A stretch of 30,381 nt of DNA, filler included, from an uncultured Methanosarcinales archaeon (GTDB lineage: Archaea; Nanobdellota; Nanobdellia; Woesearchaeales; CAXGTL01): the NCBI GenBank assembly GCA_964535955.1. It is 7 parts of 7 records of this genome, joined end to end, with 100 filler letters (N's around TTAATTAATTAA, not from the genome) between each part and the next. Parts side by side here need not be neighbours in the genome. Positions count along the whole stretch, not along the records: positions 1 to 7,278 come from CAZHVK010000024.1; 6 more parts are not named here. One strand, 5' to 3'. Below are positions 2,316 through 28,173 of the stretch, piece by piece. Within the stretch, counting starts at the first letter, position 1, and the number at the start of each line of letters is the position of its first letter. Under the pieces are notes generated by a model that saw nothing but the letters and a program-made list of their open reading frames with translations, was not told where the DNA came from and did not search any database. The translations under genes were made by a program, and so were the position numbers.

Positions 2316-3299
2316 TTACCACATTACTTTTGGAAATGAGACTATTTTTAAATTTTCTAGAACCAATGAGAGTGAATAATTTTTTAAATTGTCTTTAAAA
2401 TATGATCTTAATATGTTAAATTGTTCATCAAATTGTTTTGGATTTTCTGCAAGTATATTTATTTTTAAATCATAATTTCCAATTACCCTCTCTGCAAATA
2501 TTACCTTGTCTTGTGTTTTAAGAAATTTTGCAATTTTTCTTCTTTTTTCATTTGAAAATTTATTGATTCTTAGAAAAATAACATATCTTGTATAACCTAA
2601 TTTAGTATGATTAATGATTGCTTTTGCTCCTGATATGATCCCTATTTTTATTAATCTATTGAATCTATTTGAACATGTTTCAGGATTTAGATTTGTTCTT
2701 CTGGCTAATTCTGAAATAGGAAGTTTTGGACTTTTTGATAATGTGTTTAAAATTCTTCTATCTTTATTGTCTATTCTAATTTTCCCATAATATTTTTCAG
2801 GCTTTTTTATTTTATAATTCATTTTTGAAATAATTTCTAAATTTCCATGTTTTAAAGGGACTATGTTTATTAGCACATGGTTTTCTGCAATATTTTCTCC
2901 AAATTCTTCATTAATCTCTTCTATGAAATCAGAGAGTCCGAATTTATTTTTAACAGCAATTGTTAGGATAAGGTCCCAGTCACCACTACACCTATCAAAA
3001 TATTTGATATTTCTATTTTTTTTAATAAAACTACAAATCCTTTCTAATGCCTCATTTGTCACATTTTGAATTTTTATAAGGATAGTATAGGTCTTAAAAT
3101 TAAGTTTTGTATTACTTATTATTAGGTTGTATCCTGAGATAAATTTTTCTTTTTCTAATTTTTTTATTCTATATGCTGCAAGTTCTCTTGAAATATGTGC
3201 TAATTTTGATAACCTTGTTTGAGAAATTCTTGCATTTTGATTTAGTATTTTAAGCAAATCTTTATCCTTTTTATCTAGTTTTTTTATTTTTCTTGGCAT
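2316..3299 (-). CDS. Lrp/AsnC-family transcriptional regulator with two tandem HTH+RAM units
   Basis: LDKKDKDLLKILNQNARIS...RIKKLEKEKFISGY and IDNKDRRILNTLSKSPKLPISELAR...RFNRLIKIGIISG; GDWDL and GNYDL RAM motifs. Confidence 0.9.
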   Translation of the reverse strand: MPRKIKKLDKKDKDLLKILNQNARISQTRLSKLAHISRELAAYRIKKLEKEKFISGYNLIISNTKLNFKTYTILIKIQNVTNEALERICSFIKKNRNIKYFDRCSGDWDLILTIAVKNKFGLSDFIEEINEEFGENIAENHVLINIVPLKHGNLEIISKMNYKIKKPEKYYGKIRIDNKDRRILNTLSKSPKLPISELARRTNLNPETCSNRFNRLIKIGIISGAKAIINHTKLGYTRYVIFLRINKFSNEKRRKIAKFLKTQDKVIFAERVIGNYDLKINILAENPKQFDEQFNILRSYFKDNLKNYSLSLVLENLKIVSFPKVMW

Positions 3300-3364
3300 T
3301 ATTTTACAATAACTCTTACTTATTTATAAATTTTGTGTTAAATGTAAAAAATAGACTCTTAAAT

Positions 3365-3372
3365 TTTATATA
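3365..3372 (+). promoter_or_regulatory. Putative archaeal TATA box for the ncRNA-ligase-Ro60 unit
   Basis: TTTATATA lies about 27 nt upstream of the 5' stem of the first structured RNA (3399). A divergent TTTATAAA (about 3323-3330) precedes the lrp ATG. Confidence 0.55.
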
Positions 3373-3398
3373 ATACCTTTACTATCAATTATTCTATT

Positions 3399-3473
3399 AG
3401 AGGTGAAGAAAAGGTTACTTCGATGAATTCAAATTCATTTGTGAAAGCAATACCCCTTTTCTTATAGTCCTCT
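3399..3473 (+). ncRNA. Y RNA-like structured RNA, copy 1 (divergent)
   Basis: AGAGG(3399-3403)/CCTCT(3469-3473), AAGAAAAGG(3406-3414)/CCTTTTCTT(3455-3463), GTTACTTCG motif, hairpin ATGAAT-TCAA-ATTCAT, GNRA hairpin TTGT-GAAA-GCAA, 3' AGTCC. Confidence 0.7.
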
Positions 3474-3487
3474 TATATTATGTTCAC

Positions 3488-3587
3488 ATAGGGGTGCGGA
3501 AGGAGTTACTTCGGTGCTAAATGGTTCGATTCCATTAACAATGGGGAAACCTGTTGTCAATAAACACTTCTTTCACCAGTCCCCTAT
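3488..3587 (+). ncRNA. Y RNA-like (YrlA-like) structured RNA, copy 2, with tRNA-like T-arm
   Basis: ATAGGGG(3488-3494)/CCCCTAT(3581-3587), GGAAGGAGT(3498-3506)/ACTTCTTTC(3566-3574), GTTACTTCG, T-arm AATGG-TTCGATT-CCATT (3520-3536), GNRA hairpin ACAATGGG-GAAA-CCTGTTGT (3538-3557), U-tract after the stem; lies in the same locus as a Ro60 gene. Confidence 0.8.
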
Positions 3588-3715
3588 TTTTCGTGAAAAT
3601 TACGGTTAAAAACAAAAAATCATTATAAAAAAGAATTAGTATAAAGGATATGTATATATCATAAATATATCATAAATATACAATAAACACACAATATTTA
3701 ACGAGGTGCAAAAAA

Positions 3716-4771
3716 ATGCCATTTTTGAAATATAATAAAATATATAGAATTGATTTAGATGAAGATACAAGAAGTATTTTAGGAGAAAGTGGGTTAATTG
3801 TAACTGAAAAATTAGATGGATGTAACTTATTAATCTGGAAAGATGGTGGTAAGATTCATGTAGGTAAGAGAACTCAAGAATTGCCTATGTCAGTTAATGA
3901 TCATAAGAAAGGTATGTTTAGTGAAGTTGTAAAATGGGTAGAAAATACAAACTGGGATTTTTTACCGGAAGGGGTTATTTTATACGGGGAAGGGTTAAAA
4001 GGAAAAGAGTATGGGAAGGACAAATACAAGACAATAGGTAAGATTCAGTATGAAAGAAAAGAACCATTTGTATTGTTTGATGTGTTTGATTTTGAAAAAG
4101 ACTTTTGGTTTAGTCCTGAAAGTAAAAGATGGAAAAAGATTAGATCAGATTTTAAGAAAGCAAATGGATCTGAATTACCACAAGTACCTGTAATTGATGT
4201 AAGTTTTGAATTACACAGAATTAACGATTTAAATAAGTTGTTAGGCCCATCAGAATGGAGTGAGAATGTAAAGAAAGAAGGGGTTGTTGTTAAAAAGTAT
4301 TATCCTGATGGAAAAGTAGTGATGGTGAAGTTAGTTGATGATGAGTTCAAGGAATTTATCAAAAGAAAAGCAAAGCCTAAAGGAAGTGCATACTATGAAA
4401 TTGTTGGGTCTGTTGTGACCAAAGCAAGAGTTGAAAAAATTATGAGAAAAGAAAATGTAAAAAGTATCAAAGATTTCAGTAAATTAATCAAAGCTGTTGT
4501 TGAAGATGTTTTTGAAGAGGAAGAAAAAGAATTAAAAGAATTGGCGTGGAAAAATTTTAAAAAGAATTTAGGAAAAGTAATGCCACAAATGATCAAGAAA
4601 CACTTTGATGAGATTACAGCAGAAATAATTGAAAGAGAGGAGAAAGAAAAGATGGAAAAGATTGATAAAAAAACAGTTGGAGAAGAAAAAGTCAAAGTTG
4701 AGAATAAAGCAAGTGATAAGAATATAGTTACTAAAGGTGTTGTTCAAAAGGATCAAGTAATCTCAACTTAA
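3716..4771 (+). CDS. ATP-dependent RNA ligase, Rnl2 family
   Basis: Nucleotidyltransferase motifs I (TEKLDGCN), III (LYGE), IIIa (FVLFDV), IV (EGVVVK), V (MVKLVDDEFKE). C-terminal VTKARVEKIMRK...KDFSKLIKAVVEDVFEE resembles the T4 Rnl2 C-domain. RBS GAGGTG at 3703-3708. Confidence 0.88.
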   Translation: MPFLKYNKIYRIDLDEDTRSILGESGLIVTEKLDGCNLLIWKDGGKIHVGKRTQELPMSVNDHKKGMFSEVVKWVENTNWDFLPEGVILYGEGLKGKEYGKDKYKTIGKIQYERKEPFVLFDVFDFEKDFWFSPESKRWKKIRSDFKKANGSELPQVPVIDVSFELHRINDLNKLLGPSEWSENVKKEGVVVKKYYPDGKVVMVKLVDDEFKEFIKRKAKPKGSAYYEIVGSVVTKARVEKIMRKENVKSIKDFSKLIKAVVEDVFEEEEKELKELAWKNFKKNLGKVMPQMIKKHFDEITAEIIEREEKEKMEKIDKKTVGEEKVKVENKASDKNIVTKGVVQKDQVIST

Positions 4772-4779
4772 TCATATTC

Positions 4780-4844
4780 AAGGGGTGCGGAAGGAGTTAC
4801 TTCGGTACATAACCATAAAAACACTTCTTTCATTCAGTCCCCTT
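4780..4844 (+). ncRNA. Y RNA-like structured RNA, copy 3 (minimal, lacks T-arm)
   Basis: 4781-4806 is identical to 3490-3515 (26 nt), 4819-4832 is identical to 3562-3575, CAGTCCCCT is shared. Terminal stem AAGGGG/CCCCTT, TAC-TTCG-GTA hairpin, followed by a T7 tract. Confidence 0.78.
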
Positions 4845-4890
4845 TTTTTAATCCCCAGAGCACAAAGATGTTTGGGGTGGAGGTAAAAAA

Positions 4891-6444
4891 ATGAATAAAA
4901 CAATAAAAAGAATCTTTGAAGGATTCAGAACAAGAAAAATATACAGCAATGCAGACCATTGGAATAAAGAAGGTCAACTAAGTTTTAGTTTAACTGATGA
5001 AGATTTGTTTCTTCAAACACTATTAACAAATACTTGCTCAGATGTCTTTTATGCTGATAAGAATGAACTAATAGAAGATAGTGTAGAGATTCATTCCAAT
5101 ATGTTGATTAAGAATCCTAAGTTCTGTGCTCAAGCAATAGTCTATGCAAGAACTAAAGGGTTTATGAGGCTTCAACCAATACTTGGTTTAGTTTTTTTGT
5201 CTACTTTAAAGGATAAAAGGTATTTTAAATCAGCATTTCAAAGAGTAATTTTAACACCATCTGATTTAGAATCTTTTATTGATCTCTGTAGGAGTGATAT
5301 AATTAGAAAAGGTGTTGGTAGGTCTGTTAAAAAAGAAATAATTAATTATCTTAAAAATAAATTAACAGAATATCATGCAATCAAGTATAAGAATCAATTA
5401 AAAGATGCTATAAGGGTTAGTAGGCCTGCTTCAAAGGTTTTTGAAGGTGTTAAGAAAGACATTGTTGAGTTTATCATGAAAAATAAAGTTACTAGAAAAC
5501 TTGAACAAGTCAATGCAATTAGTGCTCTTAGAGATCTTAATGTTAAGAAAGATGAATCCAAGATAATAAAGCTGATTGAGAAAGGTAGACTGCCATATGA
5601 GTCTATTGTTGGCACAATTAGTCCAAGTCCAAAGATTTGGGAAGCATTACTTTACCAAATGCCTATGTTTGCAACATTAAGAAACCTAAATGTTATGGCA
5701 AGAAATAAGGTTTTTGAATCAAGCAAAGCAATAGACTATGTTTGTGAAAAGTTTAAGCATGTTGAAAAGAGTAGAATCTTGCCTTTTAGATTTCACACAG
5801 CTTTGAACAAGCTAGAATCAGATGTGCCTATGAAGATAAGAGATTGTCTTAGAGATGCACTTGAAAGAAGTTTTGTAAATTTGCCTGAGATCAAAGGCAG
5901 AACATGTATTTCACCTGATGTAAGTGGCAGTATGGGTGGAAGACCAATACAAATTGCAGCTATCTTTAGCGCAGCTTTGCTTAAGAAATGTGATGATAGT
6001 CTTGTTTTGCCTGTTGACACTAAATTGTATGAAAATACATGCAGTAGAAGAGATAGTATGATGACTAATGCAGAAAAAATCATGAAATTTGGTGGTGGTG
6101 GAACAGAACTTGATCTACCTATTGAGTATTTGCTTAAGAAAAAGATTAAGGTTGACAACTATATTTGTATTACTGATAGTGAAGAATGGTATAGTGAGAA
6201 CAGGTATTATGGAAGAACTGGTAGAGGATTTTACAAAGCATTGCTTAATTACAAGAAAAAAGTTAACAGAAATGTTAAGGTCTTTTTTGTGAGACTCCAA
6301 CCTTATGGAGATAGTATGGTTCCAAAACACGAACATGGTTTGTATAATATTGAAGGTTGGTCAAATACTGTGCTTGATTTTATAGCAACTATAATTAACA
6401 TTGATAAAGACCAAAAAGCAGATATTTCAAGAATTGAGGTTTAG
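4891..6444 (+). CDS. rsr: Ro60/Rsr-like TROVE domain protein with C-terminal vWA domain
   Basis: TROVE features (WNKEG, FYA, AIVYARTKGFMR, WEALLYQMPMFATLRNL, SRILPFRF), vWA MIDAS DVSGSM, GGGGTE, ITDSE, GWS. RBS GGAGGT at 4879-4884. Confidence 0.95.
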   Translation: MNKTIKRIFEGFRTRKIYSNADHWNKEGQLSFSLTDEDLFLQTLLTNTCSDVFYADKNELIEDSVEIHSNMLIKNPKFCAQAIVYARTKGFMRLQPILGLVFLSTLKDKRYFKSAFQRVILTPSDLESFIDLCRSDIIRKGVGRSVKKEIINYLKNKLTEYHAIKYKNQLKDAIRVSRPASKVFEGVKKDIVEFIMKNKVTRKLEQVNAISALRDLNVKKDESKIIKLIEKGRLPYESIVGTISPSPKIWEALLYQMPMFATLRNLNVMARNKVFESSKAIDYVCEKFKHVEKSRILPFRFHTALNKLESDVPMKIRDCLRDALERSFVNLPEIKGRTCISPDVSGSMGGRPIQIAAIFSAALLKKCDDSLVLPVDTKLYENTCSRRDSMMTNAEKIMKFGGGGTELDLPIEYLLKKKIKVDNYICITDSEEWYSENRYYGRTGRGFYKALLNYKKKVNRNVKVFFVRLQPYGDSMVPKHEHGLYNIEGWSNTVLDFIATIINIDKDQKADISRIEV

Positions 6445-7278: not shown

Positions 7279-7378
7279 NNNNNNNNNNNNNNNNNNNNNN
7301 NNNNNNNNNNNNNNNNNNNNNNTTAATTAATTAANNNNNNNNNNNNNNNNNNNNNNNNNNNNNNNNNNNNNNNNNNNN
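7279..7378. other. Artificial contig linker
   Basis: N44-TTAATTAATTAA-N44 (stops in all frames); identical at six places. Confidence 0.98.
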
Positions 7379-11548: not shown

Positions 11549-12376
11549 TCATAAATTATCATAAGGACTTGTAACATTACTAACTTTATAACTAGACATA
11601 CGAGTATAAACTTGTGTTGTCTTAATATCAGAATGACCTAAAAGAAACTGAACATCTCTTAAAAGATTGCCATTTTCAATCAAATGTGTTGCAAATGAGT
11701 GTCTAAAAGTGTGTGGGTGAACATTTTTTTTGATTTTTGCTTTTTTAGAAGCAGCTTTAACAACTCTATAAACTGTTTCAATGCTAAGATGTCCATTTCT
11801 ACCCTTAAACACATAATCATTATAATCTAATTCTTTAGATAAGACAAAATCACGTAATTCTTCTTTCAACTTTTTAGCAATAATAAACATTCTATCTTTT
11901 TTACCTTTACCAAATCTGACCCATCCAAAACCTTGATCAATTTCTAGATCACAAACCTTTAATCTAACAAGTTCACCAACTCTTAAACCAGAAGAATACA
12001 ATAATTTTACAATTAGTTTGTGTTTAACATTGTCAATACAATTAATTATCAACCGAACTTCTTGTTTTGTTAATACAGTTGGCAGTGTTTTAGGAATTTT
12101 TGAGAATTTATAATTCAATTTCCATGTATTATATAAAATCTGACTAACAAAAAACTTAACAGAAGACAAAGCAACATTAAGTGTAGAACCACATTTATCT
12201 TTTGTGCAAAGGTGTTCAATATATTTCTTAACATCTCTTTTAGTAATCTTTCTAACACAATCTCTTTTACCACAAAAATCCAGAAATTTATCTACAAATA
12301 AACAATAAGTTTCAGCAGTTCTATTGCTCATGCCTCTTCTTTTGCATTCTTTTTTTATTAGTTCGAGTGGTTGCAT
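11549..12376 (-). CDS. Tyrosine recombinase (Xer/integrase family, N-terminal SAM-like domain)
   Basis: LLYSSGLRVGE, GKGKKDR, HPHTFRHSFATHL, LLGHSDIKTTQVY: complete R-K-H-R-H-Y catalytic set. Confidence 0.95.
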   Translation of the reverse strand: MQPLELIKKECKRRGMSNRTAETYCLFVDKFLDFCGKRDCVRKITKRDVKKYIEHLCTKDKCGSTLNVALSSVKFFVSQILYNTWKLNYKFSKIPKTLPTVLTKQEVRLIINCIDNVKHKLIVKLLYSSGLRVGELVRLKVCDLEIDQGFGWVRFGKGKKDRMFIIAKKLKEELRDFVLSKELDYNDYVFKGRNGHLSIETVYRVVKAASKKAKIKKNVHPHTFRHSFATHLIENGNLLRDVQFLLGHSDIKTTQVYTRMSSYKVSNVTSPYDNL

Positions 12377-12951: not shown

Positions 12952-13051
12952 NNNNNNNNNNNNNNNNNNNNNNNNNNNNNNNNNNNNNNNNNNNNTTAAT
13001 TAATTAANNNNNNNNNNNNNNNNNNNNNNNNNNNNNNNNNNNNNNNNNNNN
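12952..13051. other. Artificial contig linker
   Basis: N44-TTAATTAATTAA-N44. Confidence 0.98.
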
Positions 13052-17524: not shown

Positions 17525-17624
17525 NNNNNNNNNNNNNNNNNNNNNNNNNNNNNNNNNNNNNNNNNNNNTTAATTAATTAANNNNNNNNNNNNNNNNNNNN
17601 NNNNNNNNNNNNNNNNNNNNNNNN
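17525..17624. other. Artificial contig linker
   Basis: N44-TTAATTAATTAA-N44. Confidence 0.98.
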
Positions 17625-21895: not shown

Positions 21896-21995
21896 NNNNN
21901 NNNNNNNNNNNNNNNNNNNNNNNNNNNNNNNNNNNNNNNTTAATTAATTAANNNNNNNNNNNNNNNNNNNNNNNNNNNNNNNNNNNNNNNNNNNN
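21896..21995. other. Artificial contig linker
   Basis: N44-TTAATTAATTAA-N44. Confidence 0.98.
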
Positions 21996-25085: not shown

Positions 25086-25185
25086 NNNNNNNNNNNNNNN
25101 NNNNNNNNNNNNNNNNNNNNNNNNNNNNNTTAATTAATTAANNNNNNNNNNNNNNNNNNNNNNNNNNNNNNNNNNNNNNNNNNNN
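25086..25185. other. Artificial contig linker
   Basis: N44-TTAATTAATTAA-N44. Confidence 0.98.
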
Positions 25186-28073: not shown

Positions 28074-28173
28074 NNNNNNNNNNNNNNNNNNNNNNNNNNN
28101 NNNNNNNNNNNNNNNNNTTAATTAATTAANNNNNNNNNNNNNNNNNNNNNNNNNNNNNNNNNNNNNNNNNNNN
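28074..28173. other. Artificial contig linker
   Basis: N44-TTAATTAATTAA-N44. Confidence 0.98.

Follow-up and report, generated by a model that had tools for sequence, protein, structure and literature searches.

A probable Y RNA with a tRNA-like T-arm upstream of a Ro60 gene in an archaeal genome

We analyzed a 30,381-nucleotide (nt) stretch of DNA, hereafter the window, from an uncultured archaeon placed in the Woesearchaeales (GenBank assembly GCA_964535955.1), in which a sequence-only reading had drawn attention to a short hairpin resembling the T-arm of transfer RNA (tRNA). Judged from the sequence comparisons described below, this hairpin, at 3520-3536 on the plus strand, is most probably the homologous T-arm of a Y RNA encoded at approximately 3486-3589, a partner RNA of the Ro60 protein whose gene starts 1.3 kb downstream on the same strand; we put the probability of this reading at about 0.8. 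Y RNAs have Ro60 as their protein partner, and the two have been studied in animals and bacteria. The identity as a Y RNA is proposed because of the Ro60 context, the homology to models built from bacterial Y RNAs and a compensatory change in the T-arm of an archaeal relative. The kind of RNA is a known one and the notable point is the archaeal host; its function is one that we infer.

Structure and setting of the predicted Y RNA

Three related RNA copies are predicted upstream of the Ro60 gene. The T-arm belongs to the second of them, copy 2, whose parts are listed here together with Ro60.

3486..3589, plus strand: predicted Y RNA copy 2, containing the T-arm (model R1, 27.8 bits, E 6e-4; model R2, 22.7 bits, E 1.3e-3)
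3488-3494 with 3581-3587, plus strand: terminal stem of copy 2, 7 base pairs (bp), from the fold
3498-3506 with 3566-3574, plus strand: inner stem of copy 2, 9 bp, from the fold
3505-3514, plus strand: conserved block GTTACTTCGG in copy 2, one of 3 occurrences in the window
3520..3536, plus strand: T-arm, perfect 5-bp stem AATGG/CCATT with 7-nt loop TTCGATT, aligned to the T-arm of R1 and R2
3538..3557, plus strand: GAAA-capped hairpin of 8 pairs (6 Watson-Crick and 2 G-U), at the position held in YrlA by the closed acceptor-like stem
3558..3565, plus strand: unpaired, A-rich linker of 8-9 bases (to 3565 or 3566) where a D-arm would stand, no GG
4891..6444, plus strand: Ro60/Rsr orthologue, 517 amino acids (Pfam TROVE and vWA_Ro60)

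Copy 2 ends at 3589 and Ro60 starts at 4891, and all the RNA genes lie within 1.5 kb of Ro60. Bacterial Y RNA genes share the strand of Ro60 and are found no more than 4 kb from it, and in each species at least one of the encoded RNAs includes a domain resembling tRNA (Chen et al. 2014, PMC4201824). Two homologues, one of them from a Woesearchaeota metagenome-assembled genome, match the Ro60 protein of the window along its entire length (100%) with 64-65% identity; for the Ro60 proteins of Paenibacillaceae and Chloroflexota the identity is about 40%. The DxSGSM motif is invariant in the Ro60 protein alignment (A1).

As in bacterial Y RNAs, the 5' and 3' ends of copy 2 pair in a long stem. Each copy contains the conserved block GTTACTTCGR once, which gives three occurrences in the window versus an expectation of 0.04, and the block is near-invariant across the bacterial Y RNA alignments (A2 and A3 below); the bacterial loci share both this block and a GGYG at the 5' end with the window copies. 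The two loop-proximal pairs of the T-arm are G-C, as in tRNA, and a single unpaired A (3537) separates the T-arm from the GAAA hairpin. Both hairpins had been described by the sequence-only reading and both are present on the plus strand, two of the eight pairs of the second being G-U.

The same reading regarded the surroundings of the T-arm as bare of any D-arm, anticodon arm or acceptor stem. No D-arm or anticodon arm was found around 3520-3536 in the sequence, in the fold or with model R2, whose 18 D-arm positions were unmatched in copy 2. Copy 2, without D and anticodon arms, is thus no tRNA cloverleaf and, without a D stem-loop, is not a YrlA RNA in the strict sense. The acceptor stem, on the other hand, does seem to have a counterpart. 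The GAAA hairpin sits exactly at the location of the acceptor-like (AS) stem of classic YrlA in A3 and of the hairpins that follow the T-arm in Chloroflexota Y RNAs without a D-arm, and it is best read as the putative counterpart of the acceptor stem rather than as an unrelated hairpin. Copy 2 is therefore classed, on these predicted features, as a YrlA-type Y RNA without a D-arm, a homologue of bacterial YrlA-type RNAs. Lacking the D-arm, it cannot form a T-loop/D-loop elbow of the canonical kind.

Homology to bacterial Y RNAs and covariation

The Ro60 relatives compared were 80 loci, 2 archaeal (L001 and L002) and 78 bacterial, obtained by a contig scan with alignment A1. Covariance model R1 was built exclusively from 30 bacterial Ro60-linked Y RNAs with a T-arm and no D-arm (alignment A2). 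Its input of 38 non-redundant T-arm-only candidates had been reduced by eight, four with degenerate D-arms (L003 2885, L004 1075, L063 4156 and L063 4660) and four with doubtful ends or length (L014, L049, L074 and L080). For covariance model R2, the input was 24 classic YrlA RNAs from two bacterial groups, Paenibacillaceae and Chloroflexota (alignment A3). The models were searched against a small space of 47.9 kb (the window, L001 and L002), to which the scores given here refer unless stated otherwise, and R1 was also searched against a large space of 875 kb from 81 sources (the window and the 80 loci).

R1 returned five matches at E<=10 in the small space. These include L001 4784-4872 (33.3 bits, E 4e-5), the homologue of copy 2; window 3486-3589 (27.8 bits, E 6e-4), which is copy 2 itself; and L002 1892-1908 on the minus strand (15.1 bits, E 0.31), which is the T-arm of a tRNA gene. 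In the alignment of copy 2 to R1, the T-arm of the model fell exactly on 3520-3536, and 3538-3563 was an insertion. R2 matched the same interval of the window, 3486-3589, with the T-arm aligned and the acceptor-like and D-arm parts skipped. In the large space, all 185 of the 185 R1 matches at E<=0.01 lay on the Ro60 strand. In 72 of the 80 loci, the 1.5 kb preceding Ro60 contained the T-arm core GGTTCRANTCC in the orientation of Ro60; the eight exceptions comprised three with little or no upstream DNA, one with the motif 3.5 kb upstream, one with the motif downstream and three without the exact motif.

Covariation was seen across the family in both helices of the long stem. RNAalifold, applied to MAFFT alignments, found compensatory changes at 13 of 22 pairs in A2 and at 22 of 36 pairs in A3. 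A further alignment, A5, was model guided and held 35 matches including the three window copies and L001; being fitted to the model, it leans the model's way. In A5, 96.8% of the cells pair, versus 72.1% after shuffling and at most 56.5% with partners slid, and 14 of the 21 pairs show changes on both sides. Its T-arm helix was 98.5% paired, with three of the five pairs changed on both sides and the two loop-proximal G-C pairs invariant; nine of the 35 RNAs have no T-arm. One A-U pair of the terminal stem, invariant in the other RNAs, was G-C in exactly two, which, from their sequences, are taken to be window copies 2 and 3. A5 was used in place of a MAFFT alignment of five archaeal copies and four Chloroflexota RNAs in which the 3' halves were misaligned.

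The archaeal locus L001, which adjoins the archaeal ribosomal protein genes S19e and L31e, has two RNA genes directly upstream of Ro60. The second of these keeps the T-arm, with the loop TTCAAAT, a C-G pair in place of U-A at the third stem position and a mismatch at the outermost pair. In this RNA a small hairpin precedes the T-arm and none follows it, so that the T-arm appears to have been retained between the window and L001 while its apical surroundings were remodelled. The sequence-only reading had proposed a reduced tRNA mimic of the YrlA kind and let this proposal depend on conservation of the T-loop in homologous loci. Such conservation was found, and the proposal is further borne out by Ro60 downstream and by the placement of the T-arms of both models on 3520-3536.

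Y RNAs with a T-arm and no D-arm are common among the bacterial loci compared. A tightened regular-expression scan gave 195 Y RNA candidates, among which false positives and mis-set ends remain, and its rough class counts were 57 with T-arm and D-arm, 51 with T-arm only, 83 with neither and 4 with D-arm only. A looser scan (389 candidates) was discarded, many of its candidates lying inside genes. By the same rough classes, a typical Paenibacillaceae locus has three consecutive genes, for a classic YrlA (with T-arm, closed acceptor-like stem of 7 bp and D-arm), an RNA without a T-arm, and a D-armless RNA with a T-arm. Three Chloroflexota RNAs, at L003 3031-3132, L063 3880-3988 and L063 4486-4593, have the same order as copy 2, namely T-arm, one A, hairpin, short A-rich linker and inner stem. 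Chloroflexota also have long arrays of Y RNA-like genes upstream of Ro60 (L063 2890-4940, L074 3560-4920 and L080 4200-4530) in which classic, D-armless and T-arm-less forms are mixed; L063 holds up to 10 T-arm cores, some of them within true tRNA genes.

Neighboring genes and the other two copies

The remaining features of the locus are as follows.

2316..3299, minus strand: tandem Lrp/AsnC-type regulator, 327 amino acids (Pfam HTH_24, HTH_AsnC-type and AsnC_trans_reg)
3366..3373, plus strand: TTTATATA, resembling a TATA box, some 25 nt before copy 1
3395..3477, plus strand: predicted Y RNA copy 1, YrlB-like (R1, 26.1 bits, E 1.4e-3, T-arm part skipped)
3716..4771, plus strand: ATP-dependent RNA ligase, 351 amino acids (Pfam RNA_ligase PF09414, 1.1e-17; N-terminal nucleotidyltransferase domain, KxDG)
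4777..4847, plus strand: predicted Y RNA copy 3, with the third GTTACTTCGG, between the ligase stop and the Ro60 start (R1, 17.2 bits, E 0.11)

Copy 1 consists of a terminal stem, an inner stem and a simple apical hairpin of 7 bp with a 4-nt loop, and its fold has an energy of -19.4 kcal/mol (z -3.2). A degenerate T-loop, TTCAAAT, had been noted in this copy, and the letters are present at 3428-3434. They do not belong to a T-arm, as the flanks pair at only two of five positions, R1 skips the T-arm here and the motif is missing from the first RNA of L001, which resembles copy 1 by eye only. The TATA-like element upstream, TTTATATA, is a putative archaeal promoter of the Y RNA transcript; the 14 bases around it are identical in L001 and stand at the same distance from the L001 counterpart of copy 1. 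The regulator gene is divergent from the Y RNA genes and has a 59%-identical homologue in L001 in the same place and orientation, with none found in the other 79 loci.

Copy 3 had gone unnoticed before the R1 search. Its stem modules are nearly letter-identical to those of copy 2, and a small loop takes the place of the tRNA-like part, with no T-arm and no acceptor-like hairpin. This suggests that copy 3 may have arisen by a recent duplication or gene conversion linked to the insertion of the ligase gene, which lies between copies 2 and 3. The nearest solved relative of the ligase is the adenylyltransferase domain of the Naegleria gruberi RNA ligase (4.5e-5), and no NCBIfam model matched it. 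Bacteria usually have RtcB beside Ro60. No homologue of the window ligase was found by tblastn within about 5 kb of Ro60 in the 80 loci, so that the linkage of this ligase to Ro60 is so far unique to the window. L001 has no ligase gene between its RNA genes and Ro60, and the open reading frame at L001 2538-3509 is unrelated.

A quick, unrooted Ro60 tree placed the three archaeal proteins in one clade (support 100) on the Chloroflexota side of the Bacillota split. Because the tree has no root, the branch is long and there is a bias in composition, no donor is claimed. The window cassette resembles those of Chloroflexota and Paenibacillaceae, to which it is probably related by horizontal transfer in either direction, a relation that the tree is consistent with. 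No signs of a mobile element were found around the Ro60 cassette; a tyrosine recombinase gene of the XerC/XerD type lies at 11549-12376, 5 kb downstream of Ro60 in window coordinates.

A hairpin of the form CCCC...GGGG is conserved before the Ro60 start (window 4853-4890, L001 4973-5002) and is followed by an 18-base stretch that is identical in both archaeal loci and includes a ribosome-binding GGAGGT. The G-rich run near the Ro60 start resembles the Y RNA 5' block, and Ro60 may therefore bind its own leader.

Elsewhere in the window, a bacterial-type pseudouridine synthase gene (1446-2297; S4 domain and RsuA/RluB/RluF-like catalytic domain) lies beside the 3' end of the 23S ribosomal RNA (rRNA). 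Compared with the Rfam model, the 3' part of the archaeal 23S rRNA (1-947) contains 43 inserted nt near 495-540, and it is not followed by a 5S rRNA in the window. N-runs of 44 nt occur in six pairs, with 12 bases between the members of each pair, at 7279-7378, 12952-13051, 17525-17624, 21896-21995, 25086-25185 and 28074-28173; these are masked stretches.

Annotation tools are silent on the three copies, which would therefore escape annotation. With 4,227 Rfam models at gathering score, the 3' part of the 23S rRNA was the only match in the window, and at E<=10 the region 3250-3760 gave nothing credible, with two chance-level matches on the opposite strand. This silence is uninformative because Rfam also misses the bacterial Y RNAs of the relatives: no Y RNA family was matched in 12 loci rich in R1 matches. 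C/D-box, H/ACA, 5S and signal recognition particle RNA readings of the copies were dropped once Ro60 had been found; they were judged by eye, the sole formal test being Rfam.

Proposed mechanism and its weak points

In the mechanism that we propose, Ro60 would bind the terminal and inner stems, by analogy with frog and Deinococcus Y RNAs, and the T-arm and GAAA hairpin could stack on each other and so imitate the limb of tRNA that is made of the acceptor stem and T-arm. The mimicry would extend to that limb at most, because there is no D-arm and no canonical elbow. The exposed T-arm might recruit a protein that reads T-arms, such as a modification enzyme, a processing enzyme or a nuclease, and so tether it to Ro60, or it might stabilize the RNA; copies 1 and 3, which have no T-arm, would form Ro60 particles of another kind. 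The sequence-only reading had suggested, as a possible function, a decoy or substrate for tRNA-modifying enzymes or nucleases. By our analysis, the odds that the T-arm engages a tRNA-recognizing factor rather than only stabilizing the RNA are about even. Archaeal T-loop enzymes differ from bacterial ones.

A more daring version, which we consider quite unlikely, is an RNA repair particle in which the T-arm/acceptor-like helix of copy 2 would bring an enzyme that processes or joins tRNA ends to RNAs captured by Ro60, these being the first Y RNAs described in Archaea. The candidate enzyme would be the inserted ATP-dependent RNA ligase; alternatively, the closed helix itself might be opened and resealed, as it is opened by RNase P in the YrlA of Mycobacterium smegmatis.

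Several points weigh against the main reading, a Y RNA with a homologous T-arm. The scores of the copies against the bacterial models are modest, and calibration of R1 and R2 was shortened, which makes the E-values rough. In the large space the copies exceed E 0.01, none of the three being among the 185 R1 matches at E<=0.01, and in the small space R1 at E<=10 misses the L001 homologue of copy 1. The GAAA hairpin has the position of the closed acceptor-like stem but is an insertion in the R1 and R2 alignments, aligned by neither model, and is not conserved in L001. The archaeal comparison upstream of Ro60 consists of that single locus, L002 being cut within Ro60. The published literal Ro-binding motif, GNCGAAN0-1G, is absent in both forms from copies 1-3, and the L-shaped fold known for Salmonella YrlA cannot be assumed for the D-armless copy 2. 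To our knowledge, polynucleotide phosphorylase (PNPase), the sole demonstrated effector of bacterial Y RNAs, is generally missing from archaea.

Alternative explanations

The T-arm motif alone is not significant at the scale of the window, and it is homology that makes it so. The window, both strands considered, holds one hairpin with a perfect 5-bp stem and a TTCRANY loop, but by itself this is weak evidence because at least one such hairpin was present in 68 of 300 dinucleotide-shuffled windows (Ns removed; mean 0.25). Were the hairpin a meaningless product of chance, however, it would hardly be expected at the T-arm position of a scaffold matched by two independent bacterial models, or to be conserved in L001 with a compensatory change, and shuffles of the 416-nt intergenic plus strand gave such a hairpin in only 8 of 5,000 cases; we regard chance as a very improbable explanation. 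Scarcely more credible is a derivation from a tRNA gene, whether as the leftover of a mobile-element integration or as a piece of a split or permuted gene, a case for which one can cite the canonical T-arm, the recombinase gene at 11549-12376 and the occurrence of permuted tRNA genes in one archaeon (preprint 10.1101/312249). ARAGORN, which the sequence-only reading had expected to report no full tRNA, found no tRNA or transfer-messenger RNA gene in the window, and the Rfam tRNA model had no match there. The hairpin, which has no D-arm or anticodon arm beside it, is flanked instead by Y RNA stems matching R1 and R2, the same arrangement recurs in L001 and 72 of the 80 Ro60 loci, and the recombinase is 8 kb away in window coordinates. 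The hairpin thus appears to be part of a Y RNA scaffold and not a tRNA gene fragment.

Two further alternatives accept more of the evidence. The copies might be cis-acting leader or processing signals of a ligase-Ro60 operon transcript, for example sites at which Ro60 feeds back on its own mRNA, rather than free RNAs. The one clear TATA-like element stands before copy 1, and copies 2 and 3 have none suitably spaced in front of them; bacterial Y RNAs also come from polycistronic precursors (PMC4201824); and a conserved hairpin with a Y-RNA-like G-rich block lies just before the Ro60 start. Stable Y RNAs may nevertheless be processed from a shared transcript, as happens in bacteria, runs of 5 and 7 T follow copies 2 and 3, respectively, and L001 has the RNAs without a ligase gene before Ro60, all of which leave this explanation improbable in our judgment. 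The other alternative keeps the Y RNA and denies its T-arm any recruiting role, the T-arm being a stable fold that protects against nucleases, an option raised by Chen et al. (2014, PMC4201824), or a relic of a bacterial-type cassette. The T-stem does differ from bacterial ones outside the two G-C pairs, and the D-arm partner of the T-loop is gone. A stabilizing hairpin of a generic kind, however, need not retain a tRNA loop sequence, copies 1 and 3 manage without a T-arm, and the T-loop consensus and both loop-proximal G-C pairs were kept in the window and L001 while neighboring apical elements came or went. We think a T-arm that recruits nothing unlikely, though worth serious consideration.

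Comparison with known systems

Full-text searches, whose coverage stopped short of the 2019 and 2020 Ro60 reviews and the supplements of PMC4201824, returned no report of an archaeal Y RNA. Ro60/TROVE genes have been noted on Borg elements and in viruses of Asgard archaea, in the passages concerned as proteins only, and a preprint on Asgard viruses mentions some that carry genes for Ro60 as well as for an RNA ligase. Should the window RNAs be real partners of Ro60, a Ro60-Y RNA cassette including the T-arm would have crossed domains and been kept in a small-genome archaeon. They would also offer a natural experiment on the purpose of the T-arm, given the different T-loop enzymes of archaea and the general absence of PNPase.

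The T-loop of Salmonella and Deinococcus Y RNAs carries pseudouridine 55. In YrlA, the closed stem corresponds to the acceptor stem and the long stem to the anticodon stem (PMC4201824; preprint 10.1101/312249); TruB modifies the YrlA T-loop in Salmonella, and RNase P opens the 7-bp acceptor-like stem in M. smegmatis (PMC4201824). The window RNAs resemble the YrlA RNAs of Salmonella Typhimurium and M. smegmatis (PMC4201824; Wang et al. 2018, preprint 10.1101/312249) in lying next to Ro60 on the same strand and in having paired ends with conserved blocks. Copy 2 shares with YrlA the order of T-arm, closed acceptor-like stem-loop and strand leading back to the stem, and the locus shares the occurrence of several Y RNA genes in a row. 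Unlike YrlA, copy 2 has 8-9 unpaired bases instead of a D-arm, no V hairpin, no GNCGAAN0-1G and an unpaired A between the T-arm and the acceptor-like stem, and its host is archaeal. The window also departs from bacterial YrlA loci in that the neighboring ligase belongs to the ATP-dependent RNA_ligase family rather than being RtcB.

Compared with tRNA, copy 2 has the T-arm (5-bp stem, 7-nt TTCRANY loop and two G-C pairs) followed by an 8-bp helix where tRNA has the 7-bp acceptor stem, whereas the D-arm, the anticodon arm and a free 3' end are absent. T-arm-bearing Y RNAs with or without a D-arm are already known in bacteria (PMC4201824), and copy 2 has close parallels among those without one. 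The Yrn1 RNA of Deinococcus radiodurans and YrlB of M. smegmatis, the latter with a 'possible T-arm', likewise combine a T-arm without a full D-arm with a Ro60-linked scaffold (PMC4201824). From the bacterial D-armless Y RNAs the window RNAs differ in stem sequence, in the G-C pair that replaces A-U in the terminal stem of copies 2 and 3, and in a much lower GC content. R1, built from 30 RNAs of the D-armless kind seen upstream of Ro60 in Paenibacillaceae and Chloroflexota, matches copy 2 at 27.8 bits. In having stems and no tRNA-like module, copies 1 and 3 are like the second Y RNA that was described for each of the bacteria studied (PMC4201824).

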